Below, one piece after another: positions 18,568 to 26,632 of a DNA stretch of 64,000 nt (the stretch's first letter is position 1; every line of letters starts with the position of its first letter). Location of the stretch: the NCBI GenBank assembly GCA_038045945.1, contig JBBSXC010000001.1, positions 64,001 to 128,000 on the forward strand. The letters are read 5' to 3'. Source of the stretch: Nanobdellota archaeon (GTDB lineage Archaea > Nanobdellota > Nanobdellia > Pacearchaeales > GW2011-AR1). A program made the position numbers and the translations under genes. Below the pieces are notes generated by a model, which was not told where the DNA came from, made no database searches, and was given only the letters and a program-made list of their open reading frames with translations.

Positions 18568-19560
18568 TTATCTCTTAGTTTCAACACTATCAAAGAGAGC
18601 ACTCAAACTATCACCCTTAATTGTTCTGTAAATAGCTTCACCAAATAATGGAATCAGAGATATGGTTTCAAGATTGGGACTTCCACTGTTTACTAGGGTA
18701 TCAGAAACAAATAGTTTGTCTAGTGTAGAAAATCTTTCTAGTCCTGCGCTGAATAGTCCGTGAGTTCCATAAGCATAAACGCTTTTAGCCCCATTCTCTC
18801 TCAAAGATGCTTCAGTCATGGCTATAGTCCCACCAGTATCAATCATGTCATCAACAATTAGACAATTCCTGTCTTTAACATCACCTATTATTACAACTTT
18901 ATCAACAACATTATCTTTAAGTCTAATTTTGTCACCTATAGCAACATTCACTTCTAGACCGCTGGCCCTTAGCCTCTTAGCAAGACTTCTAACTCTTTTA
19001 GCCCCACCCATGTCCGGTGAAACAACAGCTAAATCCTCAAAAATTAATGGGTGTTTACTTCCCAGATAATCGATTAGTGTTGGAAAAGAATAAAGATTAT
19101 CAAAAGGAATATCAAAAAATCCTTGCATTGCAGGGTTATGAAGATCAACGGTCATTGCTCTGTCAGCATAAGTAGAGATCATCTTAGCAAGAGCTTTAGC
19201 ATTAACACTAACCCTACTTTCATCCTTTCTTTCTTGACGAGCGAAACGAGTATAAGGAAGAACAACATTTATTTCTTCAGGCGAAGAGAACTTTAGTGCA
19301 TCAAGGACAAAGTTAAGTTCTGTGTACCAGTCTGATGGGGACTTGTTAGAATCATGAATTAGATAACATTGCCTTCTGCGAACGTTCTTAGCAATACGAA
19401 GTTTGAATTCTCCATCCTTAAAGTCTTCTCTTTTGACAGTGACTAAGTCTACCTCAAAATCTCTTTTTGGCTTATATAGAAGGTGATTATAAACACCGAT
19501 AGCAAAATCGTAACCTTTACTGTTAGGATCGGCAATTATTGCAGCATCACCATTTTCCAT
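18568..19560 (-). CDS. prs: Ribose-phosphate pyrophosphokinase
   Basis: FKDGE, PYTRFARQER, VDLH, QGFFDIP, VSPDMGG, VDDMIDTGGT, THGLFS. Confidence 0.95.
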   Translation of the reverse strand: MENGDAAIIADPNSKGYDFAIGVYNHLLYKPKRDFEVDLVTVKREDFKDGEFKLRIAKNVRRRQCYLIHDSNKSPSDWYTELNFVLDALKFSSPEEINVVLPYTRFARQERKDESRVSVNAKALAKMISTYADRAMTVDLHNPAMQGFFDIPFDNLYSFPTLIDYLGSKHPLIFEDLAVVSPDMGGAKRVRSLAKRLRASGLEVNVAIGDKIRLKDNVVDKVVIIGDVKDRNCLIVDDMIDTGGTIAMTEASLRENGAKSVYAYGTHGLFSAGLERFSTLDKLFVSDTLVNSGSPNLETISLIPLFGEAIYRTIKGDSLSALFDSVETKR

Positions 19561-19659
19561 AAAATCTTTTGCCGTGTTAGCTATTTAAGGATTATTGGTA
19601 TAGAAAAATAAATGTATGATTATGAAAACACGGTGCATCTTATATAAATAACTGCTTTC

Positions 19660-20272
19660 TTTCTCCGTGAAAAGCGGAATGCTTTTTTTTTTGTTTGAAT
19701 ATGAAATTCTTTGCTGTAATTAACTTCTAAATCAAGCTTGTACCATATTTTAGAATGGTTTGCTTTCTAGTTAATAATTCTGCAAAGAATCATTTTTGCT
19801 TTTAGGATAAGCGGCTATATCAAGTTTGTACCCTGTTTTAGAAGGGTTTACTTTCTAGCTTATCACTTAAAGCTTCAAGAATGTTAATTCTTGAGACCCA
19901 AAAATCTTATAGATTTTTGAGTTTTTTTTTATCAAGTCGAGTTGATTATTATTTTAAGAATTCTTTATGAGGACTTCTTTGTTAACTTTTAGATATAGAA
20001 AATCTTTCTTATCCTTACTGTATAAATTATTTGTCCTAGAATTCTTGTCTGAAATCTAACTTTTCTTTACTTCTTATCTAAGTACCAGTAGTACTTAAAC
20101 TTATCTATTGATCACCCTTTACCATCTTTTTGCCACCCTCAATCCTCTAATTACTCAGATTTGTATTGGTGAAAGTGAAAGGTGATGATCTTTTGATTAT
20201 AAAACCCTGGAAGAGGCTTTTATGCACTTAAATTAGGTTGCACTAAGCCTCTTCTGGGTAAAAAGAGGTGAT
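19660..20272 (-). ncRNA. Candidate ~600-nt structured non-coding RNA or long leader
   Basis: No ORF of 60 aa or more; at least 8 stems; G-U pairs favour the minus strand; BRE/TATA at 20294-20307; boundaries approximate. Confidence 0.6.
19731..19858. repeat. Two 40-nt tandem hairpin motifs (19731-19770, 19819-19858)
   Basis: 35/40 identical; 4 of the 5 differences form two compensatory base pairs. Confidence 0.9.
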
Positions 20273-20293
20273 ATAATATGTAGGCAAAAGACC

Positions 20294-20307
20294 TATTTAA
20301 ACCTTTC
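20294..20307 (-). promoter_or_regulatory. Archaeal BRE/TATA promoter facing the non-coding region
   Basis: Minus strand GAAAGG-TTTAAATA, ~22 nt before the start of the first stem. Confidence 0.6.
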
Positions 20308-20393
20308 GATATTGTTATCATTACACAATGACAATATCTGCTCTTTATTTTTGACCCGTGGGTTTATAATATTTGTTTGTTTGTGTTTTATTG

Positions 20394-21371
20394 ATGGATG
20401 ATCAGCCCAAAATTGAGGTGAATAAAGTAGAGGTGAGTAGTACTGTTCTTGATAGTATGAATCAGGACGAGGTTTACGGTCTTCTTCTTGATAATGAGGT
20501 TGGTTGGCAGGCTATTCTTTATGATTTGATTAATACTGAGCGGCTTGATCCTTGGAATCTTGATCTTGTTGCTCTTACTCAGAAGTATTTGGAGAAGGTT
20601 AGGATTCTTGAGGAGGCTAACTTCTTTATTTCTTCTAATATTATTCTTGCTGCTTCTTTGCTTCTTAGGATTAAGTCTGAGATTCTTCTTGACCATTATA
20701 TTCCTTCTCTTGATGCTATTCTTTATGGTAAGAAGGATGAGGAGAAGAAGTCTTTGGAGAGGATTCATATTGATGAGTCGCAGCTTCCTTTGATTTATCC
20801 TAGGAGTCCTATGCCTAGGAACCGTCAGGTTACTCTTTCTGAGCTTGTTAGTGCTCTTTCTCATGCTATTAAGACTGAGAATAGGCGTATTCGTAAGGAG
20901 CTTATTATTAGGTCTGCTAGGCGTGAAACTGATATTGTTTTTCCTAAGATGAAGATTCGTATTCAGGATCGTATTAGGCAGATTTATGCTAAGATTCTTT
21001 CTAAATTCCAACAAAAGAAGGAGCGTATTCCTTATTCTGATATTGCTTCTGGTCGTGAGGATCGTATTGCTGGTTTTTTGCCTGTTCTTCATCTTGATAA
21101 CCAACAGAAGGTTTTTTTGCAGCAGGAGGCTCATTATGAGGAGATTTATGTTTGGGTTTACAAGCATTATAAGGAATTGAATCCTCATGTTGTTTCTGCC
21201 GAATTAGAAGAGGTTGATTCTTCTGAGATTGCTAATCACGAGCAACTTGAAAATTTTGATGCTCAGGAGCAGGAAATTATTGATGAACTAAACAAGTCTA
21301 GCAAGCTTTCTGATAAGACTGGTTTTGATAATCCTTTAGGTAATTTGCTTAGTGAATCGGGTGCAGAATAA
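20394..21371 (+). CDS. scpA: Segregation and condensation protein A (kleisin)
   Basis: LDPWNLDLVALTQKYL, ASLLLRIKSE, VTLSELV, FLPVLHL. Confidence 0.9.
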   Translation: MDDQPKIEVNKVEVSSTVLDSMNQDEVYGLLLDNEVGWQAILYDLINTERLDPWNLDLVALTQKYLEKVRILEEANFFISSNIILAASLLLRIKSEILLDHYIPSLDAILYGKKDEEKKSLERIHIDESQLPLIYPRSPMPRNRQVTLSELVSALSHAIKTENRRIRKELIIRSARRETDIVFPKMKIRIQDRIRQIYAKILSKFQQKKERIPYSDIASGREDRIAGFLPVLHLDNQQKVFLQQEAHYEEIYVWVYKHYKELNPHVVSAELEEVDSSEIANHEQLENFDAQEQEIIDELNKSSKLSDKTGFDNPLGNLLSESGAE

Positions 21372-26494: not shown

Positions 26495-26632
26495 TGAGCC
26501 TATGCGGATTTGAACCGCAGACCTCCGGCTTTCTTAGCACGTATATGCCACTAAAGCATTAGTTCGCTCAAGTTGCTTGAGAGAACAACGTCTTATAAGA
26601 CCGGCGTTCTAACCGGGCTGAACTATAGGCTC
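26495..26632 (-). tRNA. tRNA-Ile(TAT) with 63-nt intron (26531-26593) at position 37/38
   Basis: Exons fold into a cloverleaf; BHB motif with CTTA/TAAG helix and two 3-nt bulges. Confidence 0.9.

Follow-up and report, generated by a model that had tools for sequence, protein, structure and literature searches.

A predicted, widely conserved small RNA gene of ~78 nucleotides with an anti-Shine-Dalgarno-like 5' end between prs and scpA of a Nanobdellota archaeon

The stretch of Nanobdellota archaeon DNA analyzed here (64 kb, hereafter the window; host genome of 847 kb, low GC, 7 contigs, 93% complete) contains an 812-bp gap (19561-20372) that is poor in open reading frames (ORFs) and is bordered by prs (18568-19560, minus strand) on one side and scpA (20373-21371, plus strand) on the other, as assigned with Pfam. 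The conserved part of this gap consists, with high confidence, of a promoter and a real small RNA gene of ~78 nt (20272-20195, minus strand). The original prediction had placed in the gap a multidomain noncoding RNA of ~600 nt; it had found a real small RNA gene but mis-sized it, and a 600-nt multidomain RNA is not supported. We infer the transcript, its ends, and its abundance from the sequence. The best explanation overall, which on balance we hold to be probable, is that the ~78-nt gene encodes an RNA that would act in trans through a 5' end resembling the anti-Shine-Dalgarno (anti-SD) sequence of 16S rRNA.

The extent of the gene was set by comparison with related genomes, which are not independent, so that all counts of genomes express breadth and not statistical significance. 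When 19600-20320 (721 nt) was compared by blastn with 40 relatives, 32 were matched (33 of 41 genomes with the host counted), and outside the genus nearly all matches fell within positions 1 to 132 of the minus-strand query, giving ~125 nt made up of the promoter and the ~78-nt RNA. Only 20332-20195 (minus strand) was conserved beyond the genus. A covariance model built from 8 sequences (model R1) detected the RNA in 146 of 151 genomes of the order, including 68 of the 69 high-quality ones, mostly as one match each and always at full length. With a model rebuilt from 64 sequences (model R2), 134 of 151 high-quality genomes of a phylum-wide draw were positive. With the latter model, a class-wide draw yielded only 54 positives among 151 genomes, distributed in an all-or-none manner by family, with f1 (17/17), f12 (4/4), and f29 (4/4) among the positive ones. 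There was usually one copy per genome, a few genomes having two tandem copies. An exact-pattern scan of public genomes returned at least 120 stretches; among the 80 matches listed, most titles named metagenome-assembled genomes of Woesearchaeota, Pacearchaeota, Nanoarchaeota, or Nanoarchaeia, and seven named bacteria, these last being taken as chance matches. The predicted RNA is thus a clade-wide gene, mostly single copy, in genomes titled Woesearchaeota, Pacearchaeota, or Nanoarchaeota. The locus itself was checked in contigs assembled from four DNA runs, one of which, of 18 kb, spanned 19400-20600 with zero differences and may be the source of this DNA; short contigs of other, co-occurring organisms from the same runs matched only 20245-20279 (35 nt).

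The RNA nature of the conserved unit was indicated by covariation. In the 64-sequence alignment, 87.3% of the cells were paired and double changes occurred in 15 of 17 pairs. The number of double-change cells was 174, compared with 48.6 ± 6.0 in column shuffles (none of 500 reached 174) and with at most 69 in a control in which the partner was slid by 1 to 3 columns. This alignment had been fitted to the model, which favors structure; the margin over the shuffles was large all the same. The strand was also indicated, since GU/UG cells (91) exceeded AC/CA cells (20), in agreement with transcription of the minus strand. For its part, the gene gave a covariance-model match of 95.3 bits, and model R2 scored it at 85.5 bits on the minus strand versus 14.5 bits on the plus strand. 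Differences in apical-loop length were not multiples of three, and no reading frame was conserved across the alignments of the small RNA family. Within the gap, which had been described as ~810 bp without ORFs, the only frames of at least 30 amino acids were 19967-20059 (plus strand, 30 amino acids) and 20220-20321 (minus strand, 33 amino acids), the latter beginning upstream of the TATA box of the small RNA, while an additional 42-amino-acid frame overlapped prs; the gap is thus ORF-poor.

A B recognition element (BRE) and TATA box, GAAAGGTTTAAATA (GAAAGG TTTAAATA), conserved in 8 aligned genomes, were present at 20307-20294 on the minus strand, as had been predicted, with the BRE on the side that directs transcription into the small RNA. 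The same promoter consensus precedes leaderless protein genes of the host genome. In these genes the distance from TATA to ATG is 20 to 22 nt, and the distance from TATA to the AUCACC of the small RNA is 21 nt. Given this match, the transcript in this order should begin exactly with the invariant segment described below, and its 5' end should be A20272; the conserved transcript sequence does begin at 20272, where the start had been placed originally. A promoter-driven, structured noncoding RNA read from the minus strand from about this position was thus borne out by the covariation and by the oriented promoter. Adjoining the BRE, an upstream element, TGTCATT-N-GTAACA (20332-20308, minus strand), was recognized in columns 57 to 83 of the 8-genome alignment and in 40 intergenic loci. 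It is kept across the order, sits between the divergent promoters of the small RNA and scpA, and may be a transcription-factor site.

The RNA opens with a 13-nt segment, AUCACCUCUUUUU (20272-20260), which is unpaired in the fold and in which each of the 13 positions was identical in 63 or 64 of the 64 aligned sequences. A long hairpin (20259-20204), supported by covariation, follows, with a base of 3 to 4 bp (CCC/GGG), a conserved A/CA internal loop, a 10-bp stem, which in the window is perfect (GAAGAGGCTT/AAGCCTCTTC, 20210-20219/20245-20254), and a variable apical stem-loop. The base and the internal loop were conserved in sequence; the stem covaried. After the hairpin there is a U tract, UUUU (20204-20201), which is likely a termination site, if a weak one; GGGTTT was conserved in every alignment row. 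The 3' end is uncertain, lying between ~20201 and 20195. Read from 5' to 3', the 8-genome alignment comprises TGTCATT-N-GTAACA, CGAAAGGTTTAAATA, ~21 variable nt, the invariant TATCACCTCTTTTT, (A/C)CCCAG, the stem, the variable apical hairpin, the returning stem, and CCAGGGTTT. In other orders the RNA is shorter (58 to 75 nt), its apical hairpin being cut down to a tetraloop.

Folding of single sequences was less informative. A 641-nt stretch folded far better than its shuffles (20 for each strand), with a z score of -5.6 for the minus strand; for the plus strand the value was even lower, -6.9, and therefore the z score does not choose the strand. When the region was folded as six pieces (200 shuffles each), only two of them stood out, namely, the small RNA piece (20195-20272; z of -4.9 minus and -5.1 plus) and a hairpin pair (19866-19930; z of -5.6 minus and -4.6 plus), the remaining four giving values from -1.3 to -2.6. 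Local structure is present, and single-sequence folding fixes neither the strand nor the unity of an RNA.

That both strands fold equally well, in a long AT-rich intergenic region with direct and inverted repeats, would also be expected if the gap held an element that works at the level of DNA (a replication origin, for instance, or a set of protein-binding palindromes), or a decayed gene or insertion sequence, rather than an RNA gene. We consider this extremely improbable. The stems covary with many different sequences, unlike DNA-binding sites; the G-U excess is confined to one strand; the BRE and TATA box are oriented and correctly spaced; and, as regards a decayed gene, a conserved frame was not found. 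In archaeal origins, an AT-rich unwinding element is typically flanked by origin recognition box repeats, with orc1/cdc6 as the usual neighbor and a turning point of the skew at the site. Here the cumulative GC skew had no turning point, no ORC/Cdc6 gene was among the flanking genes scanned, the neighbors are prs, scpA, and hisS, and the repeats are dispersed hairpins known at other loci; an origin was accordingly rejected.

The longer transcript proposed originally, either one ~600-nt multidomain RNA or a long read-through isoform, would have the conserved 78 nt as its 5' domain and the downstream hairpins as further domains. The stems on which it was built are present (20210-20219/20245-20254, 19896-19922, and two 49-nt hairpins, the others appearing in the minimum-free-energy fold), and the mismatch in the 19896-19922 hairpin indeed reads as G-U in minus-strand RNA and as C-A in plus-strand RNA. 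The shortness of the U tract, the composition of the spacer (A-rich with few T runs on the minus strand, with T9-T10 runs on the plus strand), and a complement of the tail ~150 to 230 nt downstream in both the host and a same-genus genome also speak for it, as does the z score of -5.6 for the whole region; against the latter, the plus strand folds as well and four of the six pieces gave only weak scores. Comparison speaks against it. Outside the genus, only the promoter and ~78 nt were conserved; 19712-20188 had no blastn match in 40 relatives except for a dispersed hairpin module; and the covariation, strong in the ~78-nt RNA, was lacking for a ~600-nt molecule, comparative support being absent for the long-range pairs said to join the stems. 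Moreover, in 41 related loci the next frame of at least 80 amino acids (a stop-to-stop frame, not a verified gene) started at a median of 185 nt past the RNA start, the host having the longest distance (688 nt), and these frames lay on either strand and were unrelated between genomes. The best-structured unit of the spacer is itself a repeat found at five other genome loci. A ~600-nt RNA or long read-through isoform is therefore improbable, and a row of good-looking stems in an AT-rich gap should not be taken as evidence for one large RNA. The long leader of prs that had been offered as another possibility is also unlikely, because prs has its own leaderless-type promoter, with a TATA box (CCTTAAATAG, 19581-19590, minus strand) situated 21 nt before its ATG and conserved in the same-genus genome.

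The remainder of the gap, ~590 nt, is spacer particular to the species or genus and is composed of a dispersed hairpin repeat, a tandem duplication, and a weakly structured stretch. Next to the small RNA, a domain at 20190-20098 (minus strand; z of -1.8), found in the genus only, contains a tail-like AUCACCUUUC paired with AAAGGGUGAU; at the corresponding position of the same-genus genome there is GAGGTGATAAAAAGAG. In a read-through isoform, this genus-specific, weakly structured domain could serve to tie up the tail. Decayed tandem copies of the small RNA in the spacer were discarded, the best same-strand match with filters off reaching 3.1 bits (E value of 1.2). The AT-rich segment that follows (20097-19950, both strands scored; z of -1.6 minus and -1.3 plus) holds local hairpins, including the 20046-20033/19974-19956 pair, and had no match in the 40 relatives.

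The dispersed module (19924-19870, minus strand, 55 nt; z of -5.6) consists of two hairpins, an A/U-run hairpin and UCAAGAAUUAACAUUCUUGA, with a 12-nt stem, ACCCAAAAATCT/AGATTTTTGAGT, at 19896-19922. It is 84% identical to C4:2282-2335 of the same genome, a copy immediately adjoining the RNase P RNA on its 5' side, and besides this locus and the window it was located at C4:119400, C4:240748, C7:35272, C1:139192, and C3:124052. Its 20-nt hairpin (UCAAGAAUUAAYAUUCUUGA), which A/U-run hairpins flank, was found in six near-identical copies genome-wide, every one of them between genes, and as a variant in the intron of a tRNA. The module, of which the same-genus genome has copies too, looks like a repetitive extragenic palindrome or an intron-related element. 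Farther on, two tandem 49-nt hairpins (19727-19775 and 19815-19863, strand unassigned), 84% identical and 88 nt apart, are a local tandem duplication. They show one compensatory change (CCAT/ATGG versus CCCT/AGGG) and z scores of -1.5 to -2.6, and no copies were found elsewhere in the genome or in relatives. Finally, the upstream region of prs, including its TATA box (19711-19581, minus strand), was 75% identical to the same-genus genome (query positions 610 to 720). The ~110 nt upstream of the prs promoter (19601-19711) contain a second TATA-like sequence, TTTATATA, and a small hairpin, CCGTGAAAAGCGG, and may have a regulatory role or encode a further small transcript.

The small RNA was not assignable to any known family. 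Rfam 15 gave zero matches at gathering score in the gap, and likewise in seven related loci; at E values of up to 10, only three chance matches to microRNA or small nucleolar RNA models were obtained in the gap (15.6 to 19.5 bits versus cutoffs of 50 to 96). Large bacterial noncoding RNA families (OLE, GOLLD, ROOL, and HEARO) were among those without a match there. In keeping with what had been stated originally, signal recognition particle (SRP) RNA, RNase P RNA, and rRNA were excluded, as was tRNA; reduced forms of 5S, SRP, and RNase P RNA were set aside because all three are located elsewhere in the genome. A split-off piece of 16S rRNA was rejected as well, since the 16S genes of nine of nine relatives matched the model end to end and had their own CACCUCC end; the relatives also carry complete 23S genes. 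C/D box small RNAs (sRNAs) have C and D boxes near their ends that form a kink turn, and neither a C box (RUGAUGA) nor a D box (CUGA) was found in the 78-nt RNA or the family consensus. H/ACA sRNAs have a hairpin with a large pseudouridylation pocket, a kink turn or kink loop, and an ACA box 3' of the stem; here the internal loop is only 1 by 2 nt, UUU(U) and not ACA follows the stem, and there is no GA/AG tandem. Such an RNA was not described in the literature covered, including the portion of PMC3491384 considered, the predicted-RNA lists in supplements lying outside the search and being able to bear on novelty. Given the lack of an Rfam match and of a published description, the small RNA is apparently undescribed so far.

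The clue to function lies in the first eight bases of the RNA, AUCACCUC, which are those of the 3' end of 16S rRNA, i.e., the anti-SD sequence. The host's own 16S gene was not assembled; the comparison covered nine relatives, whose 16S ends were GGAUCACCUCCU/GGATCACCTCCT in seven, ...CCUCCC in one, and GGACCACCUCCU in one. In relative G025 (loci L083 and L247), the 16S rRNA ends in GGACCACC/GGACCACCTCCT, not GGATCACCTCCT, and the RNA starts with ACACCUC (ACACCTC), not ATCACCTC, so that the same U is lost in both molecules; this is a single lineage and thus anecdotal, and two further genomes with variant tails had no assembled 16S gene. Equally anecdotal is the finding that in two genomes the 16S end plus trailer (GATCACCTCCTTTTTT/GAUCACCUCCUUUUUU) is close to their own small-RNA starts (GATCACCTCTTTTTT/GAUCACCUCUUUUUU). 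Given this eight-base identity, the small RNA most likely acts in trans, via the partners of the anti-SD-like sequence.

Our preferred mechanism, which we put forward only tentatively, is that of a 5'-seed riboregulator pairing with SD sites on mRNAs. The BRE and TATA box at 20307-20294 would drive transcription of the minus strand from A20272, and the free 5' tail would pair with GAGGUGAU-type SD sites and the A-rich stretch preceding them, masking or marking those sites. The U-rich stretch and the hairpin would be protein-binding and stabilizing parts, Lsm being the candidate protein. SD pairing is favored by analogy with archaeal sRNAs that mask ribosome-binding sites (RBSs) and with Lsm-bound sRNAs, by a layout of seed, U-rich stretch, and hairpin that fits, and by the presence of an Lsm gene in the host genome. 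The RNA also has the features of a trans-acting seed sRNA of the Lsm/Hfq type, namely, its own promoter, a terminator-like 3' hairpin with a U tract, and a conserved single-stranded seed; this term denotes a way of working and not a homologous family, and binding by Lsm is suggested here by the presence of the gene. The host genome does use SD sites of the GGUGA type, in a minority of its genes: GGTGA-type motifs, found in 57 of 908 long ORFs under a crude start assignment, were most frequent between -15 and -10 relative to the start. Several near-complements of the tail lie 4 to 10 nt before an ATG. A perfect complement of the 13-mer occurs twice genome-wide, in the small RNA gene itself and at a site before a 14-codon frame, and yielded no named target.

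Several observations weigh against a trans-acting SD-pairing RNA of this kind. With the same crude start assignment, a strong SD-like motif was found in only ~6% of long ORFs, which would limit a global role to a minority of genes. No conserved clean site complementary to the tail was found in 16S or 23S rRNA (RNAduplex, eight rRNA loci of 5 genomes), and rRNA was accordingly discarded as a target. The mRNA of scpA was no better a candidate: in 40 loci the tail paired with it at a mean of -9.5 kcal/mol, compared with -8.45 for permuted tails and -6.9 for the antisense strand, and the best sites were mostly AAAAAGAG-type Lys/Glu codons, making this target unconvincing. The U tract has only 3 to 4 U residues, and read-through into the spacer is possible. 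In some distant lineages, TATA lies 33 to 45 nt upstream, and the tail comes after a small CUACU...AGUAG hairpin; there it would be an internal, single-stranded linker between two hairpins and not 5' terminal. The RNA was not found in families f26 (0/17), f30 (0/16), f11 (0/9), f20 (0/7), and f18 (0/7) of the class-wide draw, and these RNA-negative families of the same class also have scpA. Moreover, invariance at class level together with a single copy is more typical of RNAs of the core machinery than of regulators, and pairing with SD sites leaves the strong synteny with scpA unaccounted for.

The main rival to SD pairing is that the RNA is a protein decoy or cofactor in the biology of the 16S 3' end, imitating the end of pre-16S rRNA (AUCACCUC plus U-rich trailer plus stem) and binding maturation, modification, or initiation factors instead of mRNAs. 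We judge it unlikely, if less so than the other alternatives. The identity of the eight bases to the 16S end is what such an imitation would call for, yet many RNA-negative families share the same 16S end. Likewise, the resemblance of the 16S end plus trailer to the small-RNA start is seen in two genomes, and the change of the same U in both molecules is limited to a single lineage. A protein site would be expected to show the sequence conservation seen in the hairpin base and internal loop, and the overall conservation is at the level of a housekeeping RNA; the partner protein, on the other hand, is hypothetical. The obvious one, a Nob1-type PIN_6 domain (PF17146), was not found in the host genome, and of the 54 RNA-positive genomes of the class-wide draw only 2 had it, in one case with a score below the Pfam cutoff, compared with 14 of 97 RNA-negative genomes (16 of 151 for the class overall) and all four archaeal controls. 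That this domain is mostly not found weakens a Nob1 decoy, and other partners remain conceivable. No conclusion was drawn from the anti-correlation between Nob1 (PIN_6) and the small RNA, since most RNA-negative families are also without the domain and the genomes are not independent.

A different kind of explanation starts from the neighborhood. In 40 of 43 loci of the order, the nearest gene upstream of the small RNA was scpA (39 divergent, 1 tandem), and prs lay downstream only within this genus. In 20 loci from other orders, scpA was adjacent in 5 (3 divergent, 2 tandem), and according to coordinates, of 35 RNA-positive genomes outside the order, 9 keep the pair together and 26 have it apart. 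Neighbors at other distant loci were Rpb7/S24e or hisS, from the same block, rpoE-S24e-...-scpA-hisS, as in the window, where the order around the gap is a Rpb7/RpoE homologue, Spt4, S24e, S27ae, prs, gap, scpA, and hisS. In one lineage (locus L114, relative G224), the neighbor was smc; the genes for SMC, ScpB, and ScpA are all found in the host genome. The linkage to scpA is real and long-lived, and as the small RNA belongs to an old gene block in distant lineages, it may be inherited gene order.

From this linkage it could be argued that the RNA, or its transcription, regulates the adjacent kleisin gene or works with SMC-ScpAB as a locus-bound partner. The adjacency within and beyond the order, the occurrence of smc as a neighbor in one lineage, and the conserved element between the two promoters are consistent with this idea, but it has poor prospects in our view: the genes are apart in most of the other-order genomes, inherited gene order would account for the adjacency, the tail paired with scpA mRNA no better than permuted tails did, and scpA is present in RNA-negative families. 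For this last reason (scpA was found in f26, 16/17; f20, 7/7; and f18, 7/7), co-occurrence of scpA with the small RNA was dismissed as evidence.

Two observations on these neighborhoods may be recorded separately. The N-terminal head region encoded by smc at L114 is interrupted by an intein that includes a LAGLIDADG endonuclease domain. In many relatives (L057, L048, L029, L038, L026, L046, L039, and others), the region upstream of scpA, between it and the small RNA gene, holds TAGGCACTAC (or TAGGTACTAC) as a direct repeat in two or three copies and also a AGTAGTAAT box; the window has neither the repeats nor the box.

Conservation at the level seen here normally denotes core machinery, and to our knowledge archaea of the DPANN type have tiny genomes, few regulators, and hardly any experimentally known noncoding RNA beyond rRNA, tRNA, RNase P RNA, and SRP RNA. 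A wider reading, speculative and rather doubtful, is that the small RNA would belong to the core RNAs of archaea of the Woesearchaeota/Pacearchaeota type, as a separate copy of the 16S 3' tail that competes with or replaces the ribosomal anti-SD sequence, either as a clade-wide governor of SD-led translation or as part of 16S 3'-end handling where the Nob1 domain is undetectable, and that is tied to chromosome segregation through scpA. If expressed, the RNA would offer a concrete handle on the control of translation initiation or on the treatment of the 16S 3' end in these archaea. It is short enough to be synthesized, its covariance model can be used in genome annotation, and its strong conserved promoter can serve as a reference.

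Other features of the window and the host genome concern the flanking genes and stable RNAs. A putative scpA promoter, a TTTATAAT box, was read at 20363-20370 (plus strand). The scpA frame is listed from TTG at 20373; ATG 20394-20396, 23 nt past this box, is the more likely start, and if it is used the scpA mRNA would probably be leaderless, judging from this spacing compared with that of leaderless genes of the genome. At 26495-26632 of the window there is a 138-nt Rfam tRNA match (54.9 bits) that ARAGORN does not list, probably an intron-containing tRNA. The RNase P RNA (C4:2325-2672; 49.4 bits versus a gathering cutoff of 84) and the SRP RNA (C3:162915-163175; 84.1 bits versus 96.5) of the genome gave full-length matches; both are divergent forms that standard annotation would miss.

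Among known systems, the 16S rRNA 3' end itself is the closest in sequence: AUCACCUC is identical, single stranded, and invariant, and the U-rich continuation resembles the 16S trailer in some genomes. However, the small RNA carries this sequence at the 5' end of a separate ~78-nt transcript with a hairpin after it, whereas 16S rRNA has helix 45 before it. In layout, the RNA is reminiscent of bacterial sRNAs, such as the 5'-seed, Hfq-dependent RybB and OmrA/B and the C-rich anti-SD sRNAs RsaE/RoxS, which likewise combine a 5' single-stranded seed with a U-rich stretch and a hairpin of terminator type that ends in a U tail. Conservation across an entire order and targeting of SD regions are further features of the RsaE type. 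These RNAs belong to another domain of life and there is no homology. U7 small nuclear RNA (~60 to 70 nt) is similar in having a guide segment at its 5' end, a U-rich site of the Sm type, and a hairpin at its 3' end, but its role is the processing of eukaryotic histone 3' ends.

The nearest archaeal parallels are sRNA41 and sRNA154 of Methanosarcina mazei, which, in the part of the source drawn on here (PMC5867862), are sRNAs that mask RBSs; Lsm binding of archaeal sRNAs is described there as well. As in the RNA of the window, these are trans-encoded small RNAs with an anti-RBS sequence, for which a block of translation initiation has been proposed; kinship in sequence would not be expected. 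They differ, as far as that part of the source goes, in being confined to the genus level and in having the anti-RBS sequence in loops, whereas the RNA described here is cross-order and single copy, with its motif at the extreme 5' end.

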